A stretch of 64,000 nucleotides of DNA, from positions 1-64,000 of IMG/VR virus record IMGVR_UViG_3300021256_000095; one strand, given 5' to 3'. The notes below the pieces were generated by a model. It ran no database searches. It was not told where the DNA came from and worked only from the letters and a program-made list of their open reading frames with translations. Origin of the DNA: a virus. Its lineage: Duplodnaviria > Caudoviricetes. The position numbers and the translations under genes were made by a program. Positions 1 to 20,928 of this stretch are shown here, piece after piece (position 1 is the first letter of the stretch; the number at the start of each line of letters is the position of its first letter).

Positions 1-35
1 TTATCAAAGTGCTTTTTGTTTCATTTTCTATATAT

Positions 36-64
36 ATTATATAAAAAATTTTTTAAAATGTCAA
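36..64 (-). promoter_or_regulatory. sigmaA-type promoter (TTGACA-N17-TATAAT); first of about 13 near-identical left-arm promoters
   Basis: + strand attata at 36-41 and tgtcaa at 59-64. The same layout recurs at about 2095, 2715, 4724, 5205, 6135, 7928, 9364, 9837, 10184, 11428, 13303 and 15613. Confidence 0.8.
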
Positions 65-164
65 ATCAGTTACTCGGCGCGGGTTGTGTACAGATACCGC
101 AATACTGGTGGGTCTACATATGATAATATATGAACATTTGCCTAAACGCAACTGATTTGATTAG

Positions 165-235
165 CTGGGGTAGTTGGATTCGAACCAACGTTCATGGAGT
201 CAAAGTCCACCGTCTTACCGCTTGGCTATACCCCA
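165..235 (-). tRNA. tRNA-Gln(UUG)
   Basis: Reverse complement folds as a cloverleaf; anticodon arm GGA-CTTTGAC-TCC; GGTTCGAATCC T-arm. Confidence 0.93.
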
Positions 236-243
236 ATATTTAG

Positions 244-327
244 TGCGCTTGGCGGGACTTGAACCCGCATGAACTTTCGCTCGAGGGATTTTAAGTCCCT
301 TGTGTCTGCCGATTCCACCACAGGCGC
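244..327 (-). tRNA. tRNA-Leu(UAA)
   Basis: GGGA-CTTAAAA-TCCC anticodon arm, long variable arm, GGTTCAAGTCC T-arm. Confidence 0.93.
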
Positions 328-772
328 ATATTGCGGGAACCCAGCTTTGAAACTTCACGAAGCGCCATTCCCGCACTCCTTTTATCTCTCTCTATTGAAT
401 AACTCCCGTGCTAATATGCTTACACTACAAGACTTGGAGATTATGAATATGTAGCTTATCATAGAAAGAGAGGAAGCTTTCAGCTACATATTTTATAATA
501 ATGGCATATAAGATTAACTCTTATTCTAGGACATATGCCAGATCCTGTTCTGTTTAGTTGGTCAGACAACCATTATTACATTACTACATTACTATTGTAC
601 AAAGACAATAATTATTGCACGATAGCCTGCCGAAGCGGGACAGCAACCCCCACATTATTCTTGAGTTTAGTCAAGCGAGTTCTCTTTTTGATTTTACTCC
701 ATTCGGTTATCTACCCTCTGTGCTACGCCCAAAGACGATTTCGACTATTAAAAGGAAGTCGCTAACCTTAGT

Positions 773-844
773 GGCGGAGAGGGGAGTTGAACCCCTAGCC
801 CTTGACGTATGAAGCCACGAATCTACCTTTGATACTACTCCGCG
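773..844 (-). tRNA. tRNA-Met(CAU), initiator-like
   Basis: CGCGGAG/CTCCGCC acceptor with a C1:C72 mismatch; loop TTCATAC. The anticodon stem is weak and lacks the three G-C pairs typical of fMet tRNA. Confidence 0.75.
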
Positions 845-1639
845 TTATATTTTTTCCCATTCTTCTTCAGAATAAGATTTTATTTCTTGTTTTTTAAATG
901 GTAAATTATAACTTTTACACCATTTTCTTATACTGTTATCAGTAACATTATATTTTTTACCTATTTGAACAAACGAAGTTGTTCTAATTAATTGTTTCAA
1001 TTCTTCTCTTGTTACAGGTCTAGTTGCTAATCCTTCTTGTTTTTGAATTTCATGTCTACAATCTTGACAATACTCTGCATTTTTACTAACTATTTTATGA
1101 CATTTTTTACAATAAAAGATTTGTTTTTTAGTTCTTGTGCAGTCAAAAGGACTAATTCTTAATGGATAAATTAATTTACTTTCTCTCCAAGTTCTTCCTG
1201 TATTAATATCTCTAATAGTATCTTCATGCACTCCATATATCTTTGCAATTTGAGGATAAGATAAATTCGATTTTGTTTTATCCAATAAAATTTTTTGAAT
1301 GTCTTTTACTTGAGCATAAGTTAATTTCACTCCATGAACTTGATAATCTCCACCTTCTGTTTGATTATAAACTGGATTATAATATTTTATCCAATAATGT
1401 TCTCTTTCATTAAGCTTATTAATATCGCATTCTTCAATAACTTCAAATGAAAAATTATCAATTCCATATTTCCTAAAAGCTCTATATAAAGGATAATCAT
1501 ACCCTTTATCATTTTTATTTTGACTTGCTACTTTATGGTCTGACCATCTTTTATTAATATTTCTACTTTGACCTATATAACAATGACCATTTAAATTATT
1601 AGTTATTTTATAAATTCCTATCATAGTAAAAACCTCCAT
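845..1639 (-). CDS. GIY-YIG homing-type endonuclease with C-terminal zinc finger and HTH
   Basis: GIYKITN...YIGQS...RW..H motif; CKKC...CQDC followed by an HTH-like tail. The stop codon abuts the tRNA-Met 5' end. Confidence 0.9.
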   Translation of the reverse strand: MEVFTMIGIYKITNNLNGHCYIGQSRNINKRWSDHKVASQNKNDKGYDYPLYRAFRKYGIDNFSFEVIEECDINKLNEREHYWIKYYNPVYNQTEGGDYQVHGVKLTYAQVKDIQKILLDKTKSNLSYPQIAKIYGVHEDTIRDINTGRTWRESKLIYPLRISPFDCTRTKKQIFYCKKCHKIVSKNAEYCQDCRHEIQKQEGLATRPVTREELKQLIRTTSFVQIGKKYNVTDNSIRKWCKSYNLPFKKQEIKSYSEEEWEKI

Positions 1640-2212
1640 TTTTTTATTTCATATATATTTGAAAAAATGAAGATATATTTTATATAAAATTGACCTCTTA
1701 AATTTAAGAGTTCAATCTAATCCGCGTTATAAAACCTGTGATTTATCTCGTTAGCACAGGTACTCCGTGTCAGCAGGAAACGCTCTGACAAACTAGCGTT
1801 CTATTCTATGTCAAGGTATAATCATTGTCATAAGACATATAGTTCCGATTATTTAGACGGGAATAGACAAGCCACTTATAACCTTAGGAATAATAATATC
1901 GTAAAAGCTAAAGACTGGGCGGGGTTCATGTTTCATAACCACTCTTACCTATTGTTTCATGTGAAGCTCATTTAATCTTCAAAGGCGGAGGGTTTTACGC
2001 TTTAAGCAACGCACCTCACTTCCCTCGCCTACCCAGTCGAGCGATGCGACCTGACTCGTTTCAGCTTTTATTTCTTTTTTCATCTTACATATATATTATA
2101 TCAAAAATTTTTATAAATTTCAAGTAAATGATATAAATGAGCCACTCGCATCCCACCACCTTGTTTCATGTGCCTAAGCCTTGTCCGCTATTATATCATA
2201 TACTTGAAAAGC

Positions 2213-2283
2213 CACCCCTGAGGAACTCGAATCCTACATTCCCAGAATGAAAATCTGGTGTACTGACCTTTATACGAAGGGGC
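2213..2283 (-). tRNA. tRNA-Glu(UUC)
   Basis: CCAGA-TTTTCAT-TCTGG anticodon arm; GCCCCTT/AGGGGTG acceptor. Confidence 0.88.
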
Positions 2284-2611
2284 GAAATAATACAACTCTT
2301 TACTTTACGAAGCAGTTGCCGCACCGTGTAACTCATTAGTACAATCATCACTGGGTAAATTAGTAAGCTCGACCTGTCCCAGCTTATTGATTGGGTCCCC
2401 TCTTCACCGCATTGTCGATGTGATCTCTCGTAGCCGCTTACTCAATTATTTGTCAACTTATATCTTGTTCTACGACTCCCCGCTATATATAGTCGAAATT
2501 CTCCGCGTCCGTGGTACTGTTGTATCGTCTATCAAGACGTCCTGGGCCTTCAGGAGGATATTCTCTGCGGCGGTCGGATCCTACCTTCCGCAGTTTTTAT
2601 TGTTGACTTAG

Positions 2612-2686
2612 TCGGGGTGACAGGATTCGAACCTGCGACCTCCTGATCCCAAATCAGGCGCTCTAGCCAAGCTGAGCCACACCCCA
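2612..2686 (-). tRNA. tRNA-Pro(UGG)
   Basis: CCTGA-TTTGGGA-TCAGG anticodon arm; canonical D and T arms. Confidence 0.95.
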
Positions 2687-3286
2687 TTAATATTTTCTTA
2701 ACTTTTCTATATATATTATAATAAAATTTTTTATAAAATTCAAATTAATTTTTTGGTTGATTGGGGAGAACCACTCCCCTAAAGAAGATTACCATTCTCC
2801 TATAAGTTTTTTGAGATGAAAGCTTATAAAAAATCTAAGATTTGAACATTCAATCTAAAAGTAGATTTTATCGTTATATCAAACGGATAGTTTTTGGTTT
2901 TGAGTGACTATCAACTCTTCATATAGAAGGCACTTCCTTCTATGATACCCGACTTCTGATTCTCACTGGTATCGGGCGGTAGGACCTCTATGGGTAACTT
3001 AATCCCAGCCCACGCATTGTTTCTAACTCAGAGTGACGACTCTCCTTCAAATCAAACGTCTCTTTTAATATTGATTTTAAGTTAGTACAATTTTAATTAT
3101 CTATTATTTTTGTAAGGGTGTCTCTAAGCAGCACTTCTCCTTGTTTTACCCCTTACTATTTACATCAACTGTCGCTATCAATGTAAAACTAGGACATAAG
3201 TTATTTTCAAGTCAGGCTACGACATTAATACCTTTCTTGATGCTCTGTAAGCCGTCCAAGGGAGTCGAACCCTCAATCCATTGATT

Positions 3287-4058
3287 TGTTTCCTATGCTC
3301 TAAATATTTTCCCATTCTTCGTCAGAAAAATTGTTAATTTCTGTCTTTTTTCTTGGAAGATTATAATAATCACACCATTTTCTTACTGCATTATCTGTAA
3401 CTTTATAATCTTCTCCTATCTGGGTAAAAGGTTTTGTTCTTATTAAATCTTTTAATGTTTGTCTATCAGGTCTATCTACTATTCTATTTTTTATAGAAAG
3501 ACAATCAATACATAATACAGCTTTTGAACTTATTTCTTTTCCACAATTTTTACAATAATATTTTTTAGGTTGAACATGATTTACTTTATGATATTGAAAA
3601 TCATTATAATTTTCTAAAGTGGATAAAATTGTTATAAGTTCATAGTCTTCTGCTTTATTGTAATTATTTTGATTATTTTTAGGAGGAATAAATCTTAATT
3701 TTTTAGCAGAAGAACATTCTTCGACAGGAATAAGATAAGATTTTCCTTCATAATAAGTATAAAAATAATCAATTTCGTCTTTTGTATAAGACCGCTGAAT
3801 AGTTTCAGTTGAATTAACTCTTGTGCTTCTGGTTGAAAAAACTATATAATCATTATTTTCTCCAACAGAAGAAGTTTTACATTGAATTTTAATAAAATGG
3901 TCACCTAAATCAGCAATATAATCATAACGACTATCTTCAACTATTGGTTTAGATAATAAAATTCCAATCTCACTAAAAGCTAATTCACATTGTAATTCTG
4001 TAATTAAACCTTTTTGTTTAGTTTCATTCATTTTATCATCTCCTAATCGAGTTAGGAA
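3287..4058 (-). mobile_element. 772-nt intervening sequence at tRNA position 36/37 carrying an endonuclease ORF
   Basis: 27-nt leader + 732-nt ORF + 13-nt trailer. The ends are complementary across the junctions (TTGTTTCCTA / TAGGAAACAA). Confidence 0.85.
3300..4031 (-). CDS. PD-(D/E)XK endonuclease (resembles the PDDEXK_5 / I-Ssp6803I-like group) with C-terminal zinc finger and HTH
   Basis: KGLITEL...RYDYIAD...IKIQCKT motif; CKNC...CIDC. The real start is MNETK at 4031 after SD AGGAG; the track's extension to 4178 runs through the tRNA exon. Confidence 0.85.
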   Translation of the reverse strand: MNETKQKGLITELQCELAFSEIGILLSKPIVEDSRYDYIADLGDHFIKIQCKTSSVGENNDYIVFSTRSTRVNSTETIQRSYTKDEIDYFYTYYEGKSYLIPVEECSSAKKLRFIPPKNNQNNYNKAEDYELITILSTLENYNDFQYHKVNHVQPKKYYCKNCGKEISSKAVLCIDCLSIKNRIVDRPDRQTLKDLIRTKPFTQIGEDYKVTDNAVRKWCDYYNLPRKKTEINNFSDEEWENI

Positions 4059-4288
4059 ACAAGTCAATTGCGTTACCATTGCGCCAAGACGGCATATCAT
4101 CAAGTGAGTAGTTTCAACCTCACGCATCTCTAGCGGGTTCAACGAATCGTAACTGGGGTAGCTTACTCGGATTTTCACCGACGCCCTCTGTGGTGTCTCC
4201 CCACTGCTTCCCGCCTACTGAGCTTTATTCTCTTCACGGCTTTTACAGTTTATTTTTAATAAACCTCTGTGCTTGCCTATTGATGAAA

Positions 4289-4358
4289 TTCACTGAATAG
4301 GATTCGAACCTACAACACCCGAGCCAATCAGTAGAGTTACCTATTACTCCATCAGTGA
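4289..4358 (-). pseudogene. tRNA-like element (Gln-type D arm) with a 5-nt anticodon loop
   Basis: TCACTGA/TCAGTGA acceptor and GTAGG-TTCGAAT-CCTAT T-arm; anticodon arm CTGA-TTGGC-TCGG. Confidence 0.7.
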
Positions 4359-4444
4359 AACTGGACCGTCGTCCATTGCGCGAACTTTCTTTGTTTGATT
4401 TATATTCCGCGAAAAAGAAAGAAAGAAAAAAGCTGCGGAGCGCA

Positions 4445-4515
4445 CTCCCCTGTCTGGATTCGGACCAGAGAGAATTGATTAACAATCAATCATGTTACCA
4501 CTACATCACAAGGGA
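4445..4515 (-). tRNA. tRNA-Asn(GUU)
   Basis: ATTGA-TTGTTAA-TCAAT anticodon arm; TCCCTTG/CAGGGGA acceptor. Confidence 0.88.
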
Positions 4516-4520
4516 TTAGA

Positions 4521-4591
4521 ATGACTAGACAGGAATCGAACCTGTTCCGTTACTCTTGCGAGTTCCATCCTACCATTAGAACGACTAGTCA
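4521..4591 (-). ncRNA. tRNA-like RNA whose anticodon arm ends in a GCAA tetraloop
   Basis: TGACTAG/CTAGTCA acceptor, ACAGG-TTCGATT-CCTGT T-arm, and ACTC-GCAA-GAGT in place of the anticodon arm. Confidence 0.7.
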
Positions 4592-4764
4592 TCAAGAGGG
4601 GAAGGAAGAGTTGCGGGCAGCTACCCGCCTCTTATTACTTGGTCTTACATCTTCAGCGTTTCCGCCTTGTAGCCTAACTTCCACTGGAGTATTTTCAACT
4701 CACTCTCTTTATTTTCTATATATATTATAATAAAAATTTTTTAAAATTTCAAATTATATTTCTT

Positions 4765-5181
4765 TTAATAATATTTATAAGGATAATATTTTAAGTTCCA
4801 TAAATTATCATCAATTTCTATTTTAGTATAGTCTATCTTTTCATCCTTATATGGATTATTACCATTCTGCCAAGTATCAGTATCATTAGCGATAAAACGA
4901 TTACCTATCTTCCATACAGTAAAACCAGTAAAAGAAAGATTTGGAACATAATCTATACCATAGTCTTTATAATATTTAGTCTTTTTATCATATCCTCGTA
5001 TAGTCGCATATAACAAACCACCGCTACCATCTTCAAATCTTTCAAAATTACTGTTTATTATATGAAATACAAACCTACCATTCCATAAAAAATCATTTTC
5101 TATTGATTTATTCAATTCTCTTACAAGTTTATTTAACTTATGCTGATACTTTTTTCTTAATTTATCTCTCATAATTATCAC
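4765..5181 (-). CDS. hypothetical protein
   Basis: 138-aa ORF with its own promoter at about 5205-5233. Confidence 0.7.
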   Translation of the reverse strand: MIIMRDKLRKKYQHKLNKLVRELNKSIENDFLWNGRFVFHIINSNFERFEDGSGGLLYATIRGYDKKTKYYKDYGIDYVPNLSFTGFTVWKIGNRFIANDTDTWQNGNNPYKDEKIDYTKIEIDDNLWNLKYYPYKYY

Positions 5182-5243
5182 ATCCTTTTTTATTTTCTAT
5201 AATAATTATAGCAAAAATTTTAAAAAAATGCAAAAATTTAAAA

Positions 5244-5313
5244 AGTGCTGAGTTGGAGTTGAACCAACTTTATTGCTTTTGCAGAGCAATCGCCTTCCGC
5301 AGACATTCAGCAC
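5244..5313 (-). tRNA. tRNA-Cys(GCA)
   Basis: TTGCT-CTGCAAA-AGCAA anticodon arm; U73 discriminator. Confidence 0.88.
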
Positions 5314-5404
5314 ATACTCCTACTTATTATTTTGGATTCGTCTAGACTCACCCCTTATATACAAGGTTACCATATAACTTTCGGAGTGTCCTTGTCGGAC
5401 AAAA

Positions 5405-5488
5405 TGGAGGTAGAGGGAATCGAACCCACTCGAAGCCAAAGCTGTGTGATCTACAGTCACACCCGCCTCCTTAACGGTTTATACCTCC
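5405..5488 (-). tRNA. tRNA-Tyr(GUA)
   Basis: TGTGA-CTGTAGA-TCACA anticodon arm; long variable arm. Confidence 0.92.
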
Positions 5489-5627
5489 GTAAAAACCTAA
5501 ATCACATCGGCTCATTACCCGTGTACCTCGGGGACATAACCGAACCATTACCGAACAATACAGGTATTGTCTTTTCTGGTGCTCTTGATTTAGTTGTTTT
5601 GTGCATGATTTAATATGTCTGCCTAAG

Positions 5628-5713
5628 CGCCGCAGATAGGACTTGCACCTATACACCATTTCTGGCTACTTGTTTTCAAGACAAGGGCTCCCACTATACT
5701 GAGCGACTGCGGC
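5628..5713 (-). tRNA. tRNA-Ser(UGA)
   Basis: CTTGT-CTTGAAA-ACAAG anticodon arm; long variable arm; G73. Confidence 0.92.
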
Positions 5714-5851
5714 TAAATTATAATCATATTTCATCTACCCCATCTATTCTGTCCTCCGATGGGTTGAGAGGTTGCTGAGCAACATTTATACTAATTACGA
5801 CCTCGCTTTCGGTCACAGGTCACCAGATCTCTGGCGAAATATGATTATGAA

Positions 5852-5941
5852 CGCGGAGAGCAAGATTTGAACTTGCGGGGCAAGAACTTCCCGCCCTATG
5901 GATTAGCAATCCACCACCTTAAACCACTCAGTCATCTCCGC
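5852..5941 (-). tRNA. tRNA-Ser(GCU)
   Basis: TGGA-TTGCTAA-TCCA anticodon arm; long variable arm; G73. Confidence 0.92.
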
Positions 5942-6173
5942 AAAAAGACACTTATTTATTAGAAGAAAATGTCTCAACACTGACGAACCCAAATCTATTT
6001 CTAATAAAATTAACTTCTGCCATACTGGTAACAAAAGTAATATGAGGTTTGTGAAAATCATCTACATATTTAACAATAAATACCATTTTCTTCATAAGCA
6101 TCTCTCCTTTATTTATTTTTCATTTTCTATATATATTATAATAAAAATTTTTTAAAAATTCAAATAAATAAAA

Positions 6174-6845
6174 TTACCAATCACAATAACAATCTAATGT
6201 TCCTGACGCGCAACCGCAATCATAGACTTTTCCATATTTACCAAAAGGTGTTAATATAACTGAACCTTTTTCATGATCGCTTGAAGCTAAACATATATAT
6301 CCATCTTGGTCACAAACAAAACCATCTTCATCTACATACCGCCCAGGGATGTTAAGGCCGCCGCCAGGTAATACTCGCTGACTATAATAAGTCCATTTGT
6401 ATCCACCCCAATAAATGACCCCCATCCAAATAAAGTCTGCGGGATCATAATCTCCTGATACATATTCTTCTGTTTCTTCTTCAATAGCATCTGAATCAGT
6501 TGCAATTACTTCTTCTACTTCTTCTTCAATGATAGCGGGAGGGACATAAGGCATTTCTTCTTCTGTATATACCTGTTCTTCTATCTTTTCTTCTGTTGAA
6601 AATGTAGGTTCTTCTGTGATTTCTTCTTCGGTTGTTGTTATAGTAGTTATTTCAGTTGTAGTAACTGTGAAGGTAATTACCTCTGTTGTTAATTCTATTT
6701 GAGTACCTTCTACAGTTGAGGCTTCCTCCACCTTAACTATTTTTTCTTTAGTTGATTTTTGTAATGATGCAAAAATTACTAATCCAACTATACTTAATAT
6801 TATAACTGCTAAACTTGCTATAATTTTTACTTTCTGATGTTTCAT
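6174..6845 (-). CDS. membrane-anchored protein with Thr/Glu-rich stalk and C-terminal 3D/DPBB-like domain
   Basis: N-terminal hydrophobic helix, low-complexity T/E linker, C-terminal GYICLAS...GKVYDCG segment. Confidence 0.6.
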   Translation of the reverse strand: MKHQKVKIIASLAVIILSIVGLVIFASLQKSTKEKIVKVEEASTVEGTQIELTTEVITFTVTTTEITTITTTEEEITEEPTFSTEEKIEEQVYTEEEMPYVPPAIIEEEVEEVIATDSDAIEEETEEYVSGDYDPADFIWMGVIYWGGYKWTYYSQRVLPGGGLNIPGRYVDEDGFVCDQDGYICLASSDHEKGSVILTPFGKYGKVYDCGCASGTLDCYCDW

Positions 6846-7010
6846 TAATTTTCTCCTTTTTCTTTCTTAATGTTTAATAACAAACCTATACAAAGAAAAT
6901 ATCGAAAAACGCTTGAAACTGTCACTTTCTTTTAACGCATTTTTCCCAGTATTTAAGATATTCTTCTCTTGTGGTTATTTATATTTAAAAAACTATATTT
7001 ATAGTTTTAT

Positions 7011-7313
7011 TTAAAATGTCCAATGATGATCACGCGCTTGTTTATTTAGCCACAATAAAAATTTATGCGCATCCGCATAATTACCCCATTCATACAAAAG
7101 TAAAGAAACTCCACAAGGAGTAGTTGGATAAAATGCAGTTATGGTAGCATGAAACTCGTTCTTTAACTTTAATACCCAATCTTCAAGAGAAATGCCTAAG
7201 AAGCGGGCAGGAACCCACCATCCATTACTATAATGAGCAAGATCTGAGTATTCTCCTACATGCCACTTTCCAATAGCATCTTGATATTCAGTTGCTTTAT
7301 AAGGACGAGCCAT
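7011..7313 (-). CDS. hypothetical protein
   Basis: ORF with SD in a tight run of minus-strand genes. Confidence 0.7.
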   Translation of the reverse strand: MARPYKATEYQDAIGKWHVGEYSDLAHYSNGWWVPARFLGISLEDWVLKLKNEFHATITAFYPTTPCGVSLLLYEWGNYADAHKFLLWLNKQARDHHWTF

Positions 7314-7325
7314 ATTTACCCCTTT

Positions 7326-7601
7326 CTAAAGACCTAATCTTTCCATTAAATTTTTTACATTAGCTATTTCTTCTTCTGTTGGCATATCTGAAACAGGAGA
7401 AGTTGATGGCGGCGCCTGCTCGCTCTCTGTGGCATTACCTACATTCACCTTTGCGCAAGTCAATGCAACCTTAATTTCAACTATTTCACCATTCTCTTCT
7501 ATTGGTATACGAAGTTCTTTTCCTCCATATATAAAAGCATTAGGGAACATTTCAAGTATTTTATTAGTTATCTGTTCTTTTGCAATACTTCCTTTAGCCA
7601 T
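7326..7601 (-). CDS. hypothetical protein
   Basis: ORF with SD in the same run. Confidence 0.75.
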   Translation of the reverse strand: MAKGSIAKEQITNKILEMFPNAFIYGGKELRIPIEENGEIVEIKVALTCAKVNVGNATESEQAPPSTSPVSDMPTEEEIANVKNLMERLGL

Positions 7602-7619
7602 TTTATTTACAGTTCCTTT

Positions 7620-7895
7620 CTAATTTTTTAAATTCTCGTCTGTTATAATTGTTATTACAAATAAGTCAGTTTTACTTGGCAAAGTAATTTTTATATCAGC
7701 GATATAAAATTCGTAATCCTTGCAGTAATCATCTCCAATTTCTTCACTAAAATCATTAAAAGAGCAAGGAACTTTAAGAAGCTGAATTTTCTTTATAGCT
7801 GCAATAAAATTTTCTACTCCTGATTTCATCATAAAACAGTAATATGGTTCCTTTTCATCCCAAAATTGATATTTAACTAAAGCTTCCATTTCCAT
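7620..7895 (-). CDS. hypothetical protein
   Basis: ORF downstream of the promoter at about 7928-7956. Confidence 0.65.
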   Translation of the reverse strand: MEMEALVKYQFWDEKEPYYCFMMKSGVENFIAAIKKIQLLKVPCSFNDFSEEIGDDYCKDYEFYIADIKITLPSKTDLFVITIITDENLKN

Positions 7896-7957
7896 ACTTA
7901 ATATCTCCTTTCTTATTTTCTATAATAATTATAATAAAAAATAATAAAAAAATCAAA

Positions 7958-8782
7958 TTAAGCATTTTTATTTGGTTTAATAAAAGTATTAGTTTCTTCC
8001 ATTCTTTTAGTGAAATCTTTCATTGCGCGACATACTGAGCAACTTCCGCCAGTAATACACCTTTTATTACATTTGCTTCTTAATAATCCAAAATGACTTG
8101 GAAGGCGGCGGGAGTCTAAATCTTCTGATAATCCTATGATTATTTCTGATAAATTACCAAACCAATAGCCTCTCTTATAGACTTCGTATAGAGTTTCTTG
8201 AATATCTTTATCTCCTATAAATTCAATAGAAGCATACTCTTCATAGATATTCACATCTTCAGGTCTTATAAAGAACGCGCGAATACTTGGTTTATCTTCA
8301 TATGCGGTTTGCGCTATATTCGCCACTAATCTTAACTTTGTGTCGCCGCAGACCGCCTTCGCGCTTGGTAAACAAAATCCTAACATATTAGTAAGATATA
8401 CTTCACTTGGAGAGAGAGTTAAAATAGCTTGTAAATCCTCCCAATTAGATATATAATTTGTAAACATATAAGTATTAGTAATGTCTTTTAAAGCATTAAT
8501 TCTTATTTGTTTCATTTCTTCTGGAATCGTGATCATACTAACTGGCATCTGCAAAGTCCAATTAGAATATTTTTCTTTTAACTCTTTAAATCTATTTAAT
8601 ATTTCTTTGTCACTAAAGAAATCTGTCTTTTCTGTTATGTCTATATAAATATGTTGACTTGAGTGACGTTCTAAAAATTCTTCAAGAGTTTCATCATTTG
8701 GATTAAAGCTTATTCGTATTTGCGGGACCTCGTCTAATATTTCCTTAGACATGTCCGGCGCACAATAATTAATACATAACAT
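7958..8782 (-). CDS. hypothetical protein with C-terminal Cys cluster (possibly U32-peptidase-like, Fe-S binding)
   Basis: CNKRCITGGSCSVC; SD AGGAG. The family assignment is from recollection only. Confidence 0.5.
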   Translation of the reverse strand: MLCINYCAPDMSKEILDEVPQIRISFNPNDETLEEFLERHSSQHIYIDITEKTDFFSDKEILNRFKELKEKYSNWTLQMPVSMITIPEEMKQIRINALKDITNTYMFTNYISNWEDLQAILTLSPSEVYLTNMLGFCLPSAKAVCGDTKLRLVANIAQTAYEDKPSIRAFFIRPEDVNIYEEYASIEFIGDKDIQETLYEVYKRGYWFGNLSEIIIGLSEDLDSRRLPSHFGLLRSKCNKRCITGGSCSVCRAMKDFTKRMEETNTFIKPNKNA

Positions 8783-12367: not shown

Positions 12368-13261
12368 TCACTCTCCTTTCTTAACTATACACCTACTAAG
12401 CTGAGTCTGTAAAATACCTCGAAATTCAGTATGTGCTTTGATAGTTCCACTTAATATAATCTTATCTCCTATTTCTATTGTATTATCAATAGAAGACTGC
12501 GTGAACCAAGTGAATATGTTATCACCTATTTTAAAAGTGTAAAGGATAGAACCACCCCATTCACCTTCAATATATTTAATTGATTCAAGGATAGCTTCAA
12601 CTTTTCTTATTCTATCACCGATTGTACCATAATGCTGAGATTTTGATGTTGATGCGTTAGTCTTTGATATTGTTTCAGCTATATCATTTTTTATTTTTAT
12701 AAGTGCATTATCTTTAAAGTAAGGCTTCTTATTTCTATAATCCCAGTTGTATATTCCATCAAAAGTACAGTGATAGAAAAATGCGGTTGGTGGTAATGGA
12801 AGATCTTCAGGCTTGGTATTTGTATTAAAGAACCAGCCAAGTGACGCATCATAGCGGGCTCCCGCATTTTTAAGTATATCTTTATACTCATAAGTGTTAA
12901 ATCCCGCAGGAATAAAGATATTACCATCTCCGTATCCGTACTTTTCCATATATTCTTTCTTATTCTTCTCAGAGTTAGCTTTAAGCTCTTCCTCTTTCTT
13001 TATTCTCTTGCGCTCTGCCGCAGCATCAAGTTTAGCTCTTTCATCTTCAGTATAAGCGCGAACAGTTTCATAGAACTTTCCAGCGCCCCTGCAATAGAAA
13101 CAAACTCCATTATCAACATGACCATAATAAGGAATTTCTCCCTTTCCGCCACAACGAGGACAGTCTATTTTGCAGTCCGCCATCATTTTTCCATTCTGAT
13201 TATAAACTTTTATTACTTTATATCCTTTTTCCTCATAAGTTTTAGCTAATCTATATTCCAT
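12368..13261 (-). CDS. zinc-finger + C-terminal OB-fold-like protein
   Basis: CPRCGG...CFYCRG; beta-rich C-terminus (GTIKAHTEFRG..QTQLSRC). Confidence 0.6.
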   Translation of the reverse strand: MEYRLAKTYEEKGYKVIKVYNQNGKMMADCKIDCPRCGGKGEIPYYGHVDNGVCFYCRGAGKFYETVRAYTEDERAKLDAAAERKRIKKEEELKANSEKNKKEYMEKYGYGDGNIFIPAGFNTYEYKDILKNAGARYDASLGWFFNTNTKPEDLPLPPTAFFYHCTFDGIYNWDYRNKKPYFKDNALIKIKNDIAETISKTNASTSKSQHYGTIGDRIRKVEAILESIKYIEGEWGGSILYTFKIGDNIFTWFTQSSIDNTIEIGDKIILSGTIKAHTEFRGILQTQLSRCIVKKGE

Positions 13262-13374
13262 AATCAACACCTCTTTCATTTCCTTTTTTAACTTTTCTAT
13301 AATTATTATAACAAAAAATTTTAAAAAAATAAAATGGAGAATATATTATTAATATACTCTCCATTAAAACATGA

Positions 13375-13983
13375 TTATTTCCATATATACATATGGTTTT
13401 TTTCTTCTTCAACCATAGCATCCATATTCCAAAAATCAACAAACTCTGACTGAAGGCATGGCCCTATTAAATTACCATTAAGTATTTCAATAGCCTTATT
13501 AGCTAATTCTTCTGTAAGTCCGCTATACTCACTTTTATCTTGAAAGTTATATAGTGTTTTTATCCAATGCTTTTTTATTTTATCTTGATCATAACCATGA
13601 AACCACTCGTCATCAAGAATTACCCAATTTTTAACTTGCGGGTTGTGGTCAAGCCAAGATAGAATTTCATCTGCTCGATCAATCCATCTTTTTTCAATAG
13701 TCTTGCTATATACTTTTAAGCCCTGAGCGCGCAGCTTATTACTTAAATATTTTGCCATTTGATGATTCTGTTTGTACGCTCCTACTTCAAAATATTTTCT
13801 CCAAGTAGAAATTAATACTATTTTTGCATTTGTTTCTTTTACTATCTTAGCAAGTAGTTTAACTTTTGAATTATCAACTCCTAAGTAAGAAATTTCATCA
13901 TATATACAACAAGATTTTGAATGTTCCCAATTAAGAACGCCATCTATATCGAGAAAAATAATACTATTAACCTCAATATTCAT
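13375..13983 (-). CDS. HAD phosphatase (resembles the HAD domain of 'Swiss army knife' RNA-repair proteins)
   Basis: IFLDIDGVLN, IVLISTWR and WVILDD motifs. Confidence 0.75.
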   Translation of the reverse strand: MNIEVNSIIFLDIDGVLNWEHSKSCCIYDEISYLGVDNSKVKLLAKIVKETNAKIVLISTWRKYFEVGAYKQNHQMAKYLSNKLRAQGLKVYSKTIEKRWIDRADEILSWLDHNPQVKNWVILDDEWFHGYDQDKIKKHWIKTLYNFQDKSEYSGLTEELANKAIEILNGNLIGPCLQSEFVDFWNMDAMVEEEKNHMYIWK

Positions 13984-20126: not shown

Positions 20127-20471
20127 ATCTCTTACCTCTTTTCCTTTGTTTTCTTTATTATATCACTTGCGGTTGCTATTGTCAAGCACTTTTTTAATTA
20201 TTTTTTTATGCTTGCTTAGTGCGCTTACCGCTCCTTACATTATCTATTATAACAGATTGATTATAAAATGCAATATACAAAATGCACAAAGTTTCAGGAG
20301 AAAATTTGTGCAAAATTTTTTAAAATTTTACTTGACAAAAAAGCTCGACGGGTGTATAATGGAAATTTGGCGCGAACTCGACTTCCTCCGGGCGAGTTCG
20401 CGCCAAGGAAAATAGCCATAGTTTTCACTATGACTATAAGGAAAGGAGGTTTCAATTTTCATCTCGTTGAG

Positions 20472-20550
20472 TGGAGCGAACGGGACTCGAACCCGTAGCA
20501 TAGGTAATAATTTGTCACCCACATGGTCTGTTCCAGTTAGTCATCGCCCC
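20472..20550 (-). ncRNA. tRNA-like RNA with an Ala-type acceptor (G3-U70, A73) and an atypical anticodon arm
   Basis: GGGGCGA/TCGCTCC-A acceptor; ACGGG-TTCGAGT-CCCGT T-arm; extended arm TGGGTGA-CAAATTA-TTACCTA. Confidence 0.75.
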
Positions 20551-20601
20551 TTATTTATTTATGACCCCCTACCCCATTGGATAGGGGGAGTAACCTTTGT
20601 A

Positions 20602-20928
20602 CTACTCGGCAATCACGAACCTTGTAGGGTTCTTGCCCTTAGCTTCTATCTTTGTAACTGTCTTATCAGCTACAAGTGGACGCATAAGCGCAGAAGCTTT
20701 CTGGCAAGAGATACCAATCTCTGTACCAATTTCAGTAGCCGTTCTTGCGTGACCATCTGCAAGTATTGCAAGAATATCAGCCTTGATACCCTCATTAGCT
20801 ACCTGAACCTTAGTTGGCTTTGAGGACTTTCTATCAAGAGAAGCAATCATCTTCTCAGCGACCTCTCTCATTTCATCTGTGCAACCCTCAAGTTCCATTG
20901 TCTTTGTAAGAAATTCTCTCTTTGTCAT
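20602..20928 (-). CDS. coiled-coil + winged-helix protein, paralog 3
   Basis: MTKREF...LDRKSSKPTK.Q..NEGIKA...TA.EI...KGKNP....IAE. Confidence 0.8.
   Translation of the reverse strand: MTKREFLTKTMELEGCTDEMREVAEKMIASLDRKSSKPTKVQVANEGIKADILAILADGHARTATEIGTEIGISCQKASALMRPLVADKTVTKIEAKGKNPTRFVIAE

Follow-up and report, generated by a model that had tools for sequence, protein, structure and literature searches.

To our knowledge, all known tRNA introns of bacteria and of their viruses self-splice, and protein-dependent tRNA splicing is regarded as a hallmark of archaea and eukaryotes. Here we describe a 772-nt insert with an endonuclease gene that interrupts the anticodon loop of a tRNA-Thr(UGU) gene in the DNA of a phage of the Caudoviricetes (IMG/VR record IMGVR_UViG_3300021256_000095; 74.8 kb, ~57% complete), of which positions 1-64,000 were analysed as one stretch, hereafter the window. 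The insert belongs to a family, referred to here as the rod family, whose ends are predicted to pair with each other and with the anticodon. It emerges as a mobile homing element and may, in addition, be a tRNA intron that is removed by proteins.

Several described systems resemble this locus in part. The group I intron in the tRNA-fMet gene of Synechocystis PCC 6803 encodes the homing endonuclease I-Ssp6803I (PDB entry 2OST), which belongs to the same PF11645 family and has the same D...D...QxK motif; it is likewise an anticodon-loop insert with a pseudo-palindromic anticodon stem-loop target, and it moves by homing. That intron, however, is 655 nt long, combines an open reading frame (ORF) of 150 aa with a ribozyme of ~200 nt and self-splices, whereas the phage insert has 40 non-coding nt and neither a group I core nor a terminal G. 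Moreover, the pairing partner of the anticodon is the 3' end of the insert in the phage, but the 5' internal guide sequence in the Synechocystis intron. Archaeal bulge-helix-bulge (BHB) introns, those in rRNA carrying LAGLIDADG genes such as I-DmoI and I-PorI, are likewise ribozyme-less elements with a homing endonuclease in a stable-RNA gene; their ends also pair with the exons by the anticodon stem, and they are removed by proteins. Unlike these introns, the phage insert does not present 3-nt bulges 4 bp apart, no EndA is encoded in 31 phage records, and the hosts are bacteria.

The 'enigmatic' tRNA introns of Lak megaphages (Devoto et al., bioRxiv 10.1101/356790; PMC6784885) are likewise non-group-I, anticodon-loop insertions of gut phages; they share tRNA clusters with the rod family, and their mode of removal is equally unexplained. 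These introns are ~40-80 nt or more in length, resemble tRNAs in having a T-arm and, in many cases, a CCA-like end, occupy other positions in the loop and have no PD-(D/E)XK gene, whereas members of the rod family are built as a simple rod whose loop holds an ORF. The intervening sequences that RNase III excises from 23S rRNA also have paired ends forming a long helix that marks them for excision from RNA; they are not religated, however, and are cut with a 2-nt stagger, whereas a tRNA severed behind nt 36 would have to be ligated and its cuts would have a 3-nt stagger. In the SOS splicing of DNA transposons from animal mRNA, inverted-repeat pairing triggers excision and RtcB reseals the transcript (PMC12779559), but RtcB is missing from all 30 carrier phages of the rod family. 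Literature searches, which recovered group I tRNA introns, archaeal BHB introns, Lak-phage introns and SOS splicing, yielded no account of ribozyme-less rod inserts carrying an endonuclease, and the family is apparently without previous description.

The original prediction, made from the letters of the window, had proposed that two tRNA halves, separated at position 36/37 by a 772-nt gap that includes a 732-nt ORF, join into a Thr(UGU) cloverleaf. Recomputation with ARAGORN reproduced all these details (Table 1): the joined exons give a regular, full cloverleaf with G1-C72 and C2-G71 pairs, CCA is not encoded in the 3' exon, and the ORF leaves 27 + 13 = 40 non-coding nt in the insert, the last base of which is A. 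ARAGORN run in intron mode sets the junction a base earlier, which yields Ser(UGA). The gene body is that of a class I tRNA with intact phage tRNA-Thr(UGU) genes as its nearest matches, and this similarity, along with an empty-site allele described below, is the reason for placing the junction at 36/37 and for assigning the gene to Thr(UGU) and not Ser(UGA). The AGGAG sequence preceding the ORF could pair locally with insert positions +3 to +7, in competition with the rod.

A repeat search detected complementary arms at 3280-3295 and 4053-4068, matching at 15 of 16 positions; these arms take in the anticodon stem and, after a mismatch of C32 with A38, a helix of 10 bp (H1) that extends from U33:A37 to +6:-9. 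The folding of the 844-nt precursor concurs, its minimum free energy and centroid structures both retaining the cloverleaf and H1 (z-score -4.2), so that the predicted 10-bp extension of the anticodon stem by pairing of the two junctions was recovered in two ways. Beyond H1 lie a small A / CA internal loop and a second helix (H2), which at 3 bp is weak in the window and reaches 4-17 bp in relatives.

To place this structure in a family, we compared 31 distinct split tRNAs, which represent 11 anticodons. Their isotypes were called from the tRNA body alone, by masking the loop and taking the best match in a set of 359 intact phage tRNAs, and agreed in most of the 31 with the anticodon obtained by joining at 36/37 (Thr, Pro, Gln, Trp, Lys, Asn, Ile, Glu and Ser); at Arg(ACG), Cys(GCA) and some single loci the call was weak or ambiguous. 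Split Ala(UGC), CAU and amber-suppressor CUA tRNAs occur outside this set. Across the family H1 runs for 10-11 bp from U33:A37, ending at the A / CA loop in 16 of the 31 loci, the window included, and beyond that loop H2 (3-17 bp) closes on the ORF. The last three nucleotides of the insert follow the anticodon closely: 90 of 93 cells are paired (76 Watson-Crick and 14 G.U), the other three being U.U. When the 14 distinct combinations of anticodon and triplet were shuffled, none of 20,000 shuffles reached the observed 41 paired cells of 42, and the shuffle mean was 19.0. Over the whole rod, the 31 relatives have 544 Watson-Crick, 65 G.U and 56 mismatched cells, with three to seven pair types per H1 column; the helix sequences have diverged freely while pairing was preserved. 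Non-Watson-Crick cells are far more often G.U than A.C (65 versus 7), which argues for a helix formed by the sense-strand RNA rather than for a protein-binding repeat in DNA. The same insert with covarying ends, for which a search of related phages had been suggested, was thus found, and the pattern points to the rod being a covarying RNA helix, presumably coaxial with the anticodon stem.

A second type of rod was observed in some short-ORF members of the Lys and Asn groups (L038, L054, L074, L065, L042, L057 and L058, at ~1430-1970 of each). Here H1 is broken by an internal loop that is larger and rich in purines; its strands, CUGA / UGAUG-like, possibly form a motif for protein binding.

Table 1. 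Features of the split tRNA-Thr(UGU) gene, its insert and the predicted rod, in window coordinates
Feature	Position	Strand	Remark
5' exon of tRNA-Thr(UGU), nt 1-36, 35 nt	4059-4093	minus	joined-halves ARAGORN call
Anticodon stem, 5' strand	4068-4064	minus	
Anticodon U34-G35-U36	4061-4059	minus	
Intervening sequence, 772 nt, between nt 36 and 37	3287-4058	minus	L093 allele uninterrupted here
3' exon, nt 37-73, 37 nt	3250-3286	minus	
Anticodon stem, 3' strand	3284-3280	minus	
Endonuclease ORF, 243 aa + stop	3300-4031	minus	
Shine-Dalgarno AGGAG, 8 nt before ATG	4040-4044	minus	direct sequence reading
Rod helix H1, 5' strand (U33, anticodon, insert +1 to +6)	4053-4062	minus	
Rod helix H1, 3' strand (insert -9 to -1 + A37)	3286-3295	minus	terminal ACA pairs with anticodon
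1x2 internal loop, 3' side, CA	3296-3297	minus	
1x2 internal loop, 5' side, A	4052	minus	
Rod helix H2, CUC	4049-4051	minus	paired with GAG
Rod helix H2, GAG	3298-3300	minus	overlaps stop codon

The product of the ORF had been predicted to be a PD-(D/E)XK protein, and profile and structure searches place it more precisely in the I-Ssp6803I family. It matches PF11645 (PDDEXK_5) with an E-value of 1.3e-23 and 84 bits, against a curated cut-off of 26.1 (85.5 bits in the genome-wide search), and its best PDB match is 2OST (E 6e-6), with the residues of which its Y-D...D...Q-x-K motif aligns; the motif is invariant in 26 homologues. The N-terminal PD-(D/E)XK nuclease is followed by a CxxC...CxxC zinc ribbon and a C-terminal helix-turn-helix-like module. 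More than 900 full-length homologues of the protein were found, as were 506 relatives in IMG/VR, and no cultured bacterial genome carries the nuclease domain; the hosts of the carriers are bacteria (metagenome-assembled genome bins of Bacillota). The family is widespread in tRNA arrays of gut and rumen phages.

Every endonuclease ORF of the family is single-frame, without frameshifts. In-frame TAG codons, one to five per ORF, are present in L001, L009, L020, L022, L024, L026, L028, L033, L040 and L069; internal stops are all TAG, apart from a few TAA at the ends of aligned stretches that are possibly true stops. Since only TAG is affected and the phages concerned encode tRNA(CUA), these ORFs are recoded genes rather than pseudogenes, and their carriers seem to read TAG as sense. 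A different class of insert, ~850 nt long and at an earlier position in the anticodon loop, was encountered at L061:896-1837, L076:914-1838 and L084:1060-1980. L061 and L076 match only residues 156-243 of the endonuclease, and L084 residues 94-243, that is, the zinc-ribbon and helix-turn-helix tail, so that the DNA-binding module looks shared between insert classes.

The insertion point is 36/37 in every split tRNA of the family. Among ~64 fetched loci with the nuclease domain, ~50 have it inside a split, otherwise intact tRNA and ~7 have it free-standing between intact tRNA genes; no copy of the endonuclease was seen beside a decayed tRNA half, and no ORF-less mini-rods were found among the short-intron calls of these loci. 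Inserts that are 92-97% identical at the nucleotide level occur in the window and in L086, L087/L088 and L089, at four different anticodon-stem sequences, and the tRNA-Thr(UGU) exons that host them are strongly divergent, similarity ending a few bases from the junction, which is indicative of recent homing. The metagenome contig L093 supplies an empty site: an intact tRNA-Thr(UGU) gene that is identical to the joined exons at 65 of 72 positions and adjoins a tRNA-Pro gene, like the split gene of the window. The flanks of 16 pairs of intron-bearing alleles are unrelated (~55-58% identity). Around the junction, the shared bases make up a short palindrome with the anticodon at its centre, consistent with the pseudo-palindromic target published for I-Ssp6803I, which is bound by a tetramer (PMC3384342). 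Near-identical inserts in divergent genes and the empty site, an intact Thr(UGU) allele of the kind that the original prediction had proposed to look for, show that the insert is a mobile homing element, by all sequence signs spread at the DNA level by its own endonuclease.

None of the known splicing types accommodates the insert. Rfam searches of window positions 1-8000 (E<=1) and 3200-4150 (E<=10) returned tRNA matches only, and those of 19 related loci (E<=0.01) returned tRNAs, tRNA-like matches, tmRNA and ROOL, with no group I, group II or small ribozyme among them. A group I intron was rejected in view of the missing RF00028 core, the terminal A in place of omega-G and the 40 non-coding nt, compared with ~200 needed; a group II intron, in view of the first bases, UUCCUA and not GUGYG, and of the lack of a domain V match in Rfam. 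As to an archaeal BHB intron, the helix is continuous through both junctions, without two 3-nt bulges 4 bp apart, and inspection of the sequence revealed no register that holds both junctions in bulges with the anticodon stem intact; EndA (PF01974) is encoded in 0 of 31 phage records, that of the window included, in a search that matched control genomes, and RtcB is likewise absent from the 74.8-kb record of the window. Rfam, the sequence and the continuity of the helix thus agree with the initial assessment of an element that ends in A and has no group I or II core and no BHB motif. Besides tRNAs and tRNA-like matches, the RNAs recovered from the tRNA arrays of carriers are a ROOL RNA at L047:3114-3435 (154 bits, clipped by the end of the locus) and a tmRNA at L003:2214-2561 (81 bits).

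From the gene content of their genomes, the split genes look needed by their phages. Where a genome is complete, with terminal repeats, no gene other than the split one serves its anticodon. For example, G013 has 28 intact tRNAs covering 19 amino acids, Thr alone being missing and represented by the split gene; in G022 the sole Ile(GAU) gene is split, and in G001 the Thr and Ala genes are. The complete 190-kb genome G023 has four splits at C1:121438-131887 (L152), in Thr(UGU), two Lys(UUU) and CAU genes, with no intact twin. An intact Thr gene elsewhere, which the original prediction had associated with a simple disruptive insertion, is absent from the 74.8-kb record of the window, ~57% complete as it is. 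An amber-suppressor tRNA(CUA) gene is also split at 36/37, by a 764-nt insert that ends in the complementary triplet (L096:1424-2262 and L145:9946-10784), and no second tRNA(CUA) gene was detected within 10 kb on either side of the L145 gene; such a gene is a natural genetic reporter for splicing. Neighbouring tRNAs carry short, ORF-less inserts of ~40-77 nt (L067:1025-1144, L073:447-566, L012:487-625, L026:831-966 and L044:1857-1998), which have a T-arm-like hairpin and often a CCA-like tail and correspond to the tRNA-shaped 'enigmatic' class of Lak phages. These short inserts are not explicable as selfish genes, which suggests that the phage-host systems in question may be able to cut and rejoin tRNAs.

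We therefore favour, at a probability of about one half, the reading of the insert as a protein-spliced tRNA intron of an undescribed type. It leads because the pairing of the ends is family-wide, covaries with 11 anticodons and takes up G.U but not A.C, and because the split genes are sole genes. The original prediction had left a choice between such an intron and a homing element with ends selected to keep the tRNA recoverable; homing has been substantiated, and splicing stands as the leading interpretation only. In the transcript, both ends of the insert fold, along with U33, A37 and the anticodon, into the rod, which continues the anticodon stem and holds the ORF as a giant loop. According to the model, the rod would present both junctions to proteins in a fixed geometry. 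Two hydrolytic cuts, between nt 36 and +1 and between -1 and nt 37, would flank the triplet formed by anticodon and anti-anticodon, leave ends that carry 5'-P and 3'-OH groups and are offset by a 3-nt 3' stagger, and release the insert, and an ATP-dependent RNA ligase of the phage (Rnl2-, Rnl5- or Rnl1-like) or of the host would then reseal the loop to give tRNA-Thr(UGU).

A hydrolytic PD-(D/E)XK nuclease or RNase III leaves 5'-P and 3'-OH ends. RNA ligases of the types found in the carriers require such ends (PMC7824862). Genes of the RNA-ligase family are present in 24 of the 30 carrier records and in 13 of the 15 near-complete ones, as Rnl2-like ORFs of ~400-425 aa, Rnl1-like ORFs and 456-477-aa proteins with PHA02142 OB and RNA_ligase domains. 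In the window, a HAD phosphatase of the 'Swiss army knife' RNA-repair type is encoded at 13375-13983 on the minus strand (PF18143, E 7e-25). As a general partner in splicing this phosphatase type was discarded, being present in only 3 of 30 other carriers, and searches with the 303-aa gene next to it (12368-13279) pointed to no family or fold.

Which enzyme would do the cutting is a separate matter. The proximal half of the rod (nt 27-36 with 43-37 and -1 to -3) matches one DNA half-site almost base for base, which makes the endonuclease itself a candidate RNA cutter, an assignment that we nonetheless rate as unlikely. In the work of Bonocora and Shub from 2001, I-Ssp6803I reportedly cuts both strands beside the anticodon triplet, leaving 3-nt 3' extensions; the RNA cuts of the model would have this geometry, and the insertion point 36/37 would equal the top-strand cut. 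By mimicking half of the DNA homing site, the rod might have both of its RNA strands cut beside the triplet, as on DNA; an Rnl-type ligase from phage or host would still be required. The tRNA splicing endonucleases also have the PD-(D/E)XK fold (PMC3424549).

A number of points weigh against protein splicing. The presence of ligases in carriers amounts to compatibility with splicing and not to an association; ligases are not universal among carriers, and the search of the 74.8-kb record (~57% complete) for an RNA ligase (RtcB or Rnl) or splicing endonuclease, proposed along with the intron, found none. Both junctions lie inside an unbroken helix, unsuited to EndA-type or RtcB-type chemistry, and the stagger of RNase III is 2 nt and not the 3 nt required here. 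We know of no pathway for protein-only tRNA splicing in bacteria or phages. Finally, free-standing relatives of the endonuclease exist, and, given the recent horizontal spread, intact exons could merely mean young insertions into dispensable tRNAs.

The main rival, less likely than splicing but well ahead of the other alternatives, is that this last consideration is the whole explanation, namely that a selfish endonuclease gene homed into a dispensable phage tRNA, is not spliced and inactivates the tRNA. The rod would then serve the mRNA of the endonuclease, for example by switching its translation or as an RNase III processing or stability site that releases it from the polycistronic transcript of the tRNAs, and indeed elements of the rod are overlapped by the Shine-Dalgarno sequence and the stop codon. 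Phage tRNAs are frequently dispensable; the horizontal spread of near-identical inserts is very recent, the intactness of all ORFs is expected of a young driving element, free-standing relatives reside in the same tRNA arrays, and there is no universally encoded, dedicated splicing enzyme. An unspliced insert, however, leaves unexplained why the helix continues unbroken into the exons and why the last three nucleotides covary with 11 anticodons, as well as the loss of the only Thr or Ile(GAU) gene, or of several genes at once, from otherwise full tRNA sets. The position inside a tRNA is, moreover, ~7 times commoner than the harmless free-standing one, and at least three free-standing copies clearly lack a flanking rod, with one or two more ambiguous (a small sample).

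Self-splicing by an unrecognised RNA catalyst, overlapping the ORF or located in the rod, appears very improbable. It has precedent in that known bacterial and phage tRNA introns are all ribozymes, and the founder of the endonuclease family is itself encoded, as an ORF of 150 aa, by a 655-nt group I intron (PMC1995217). Yet neither the window nor the 19 loci have an Rfam match to a ribozyme, and the 40 non-coding nt leave no room for one; short members of the family, with ORFs of 130-150 aa, similarly have ~40 nt beyond the ORF. The last base of the insert is not a fixed G but, in relatives, the one that pairs with nt 34; nt 36, which directly precedes the 5' junction and is a U in group I introns, varies with the isotype (U, G, A or C), and the only conserved unpaired bases (A / CA) are 6-10 bp from the junctions.

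Least probable of all is a DNA-level element whose 16-nt terminal inverted repeats bind a protein and whose precise excision restores the tRNA gene, as in the transposon-like interpretation once entertained for the terminal symmetry: the repeat is complementary at 15 of 16 positions and the structural relatives nearest to I-Ssp6803I include Holliday-junction resolvases (PMC3384342), but there is no direct repeat (target-site duplication) at the junctions and no transposase, the endonuclease being the sole ORF, the strand-specific excess of G.T (65) over A.C (7) and the pairing kept in diverging helices are the behaviour of an RNA helix, and excision would regenerate the endonuclease's own target.

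Three other features of the window were recorded. A free-standing, 264-aa GIY-YIG endonuclease with a helix-turn-helix (845-1639, minus strand) lies between tRNA-Met and tRNA-Glu and is the second homing-type nuclease of the tRNA cluster that contains the split gene. The ~560 nt directly downstream of the split tRNA (2687-3249) contain no ORF of >=60 aa and have no Rfam match at E<=1. In its intron mode, ARAGORN also calls a 'tRNA-Val(aac)' with a 178-nt insert at 20471-20745 (minus strand).

If the insert of the window and its relatives are spliced, they would show that enzymatic tRNA splicing arose a second time, independently, possibly with one nuclease acting on both DNA and RNA; should the endonuclease prove to be the cutter, this would be a protein-only phage system, independent of the archaeal and eukaryal one and yet based on the same PD-(D/E)XK fold. 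If they are not spliced, homing endonucleases would routinely knock out phage tRNA genes, including the suppressors of recoded phages, which bears on the dependence of phages on their own tRNAs.

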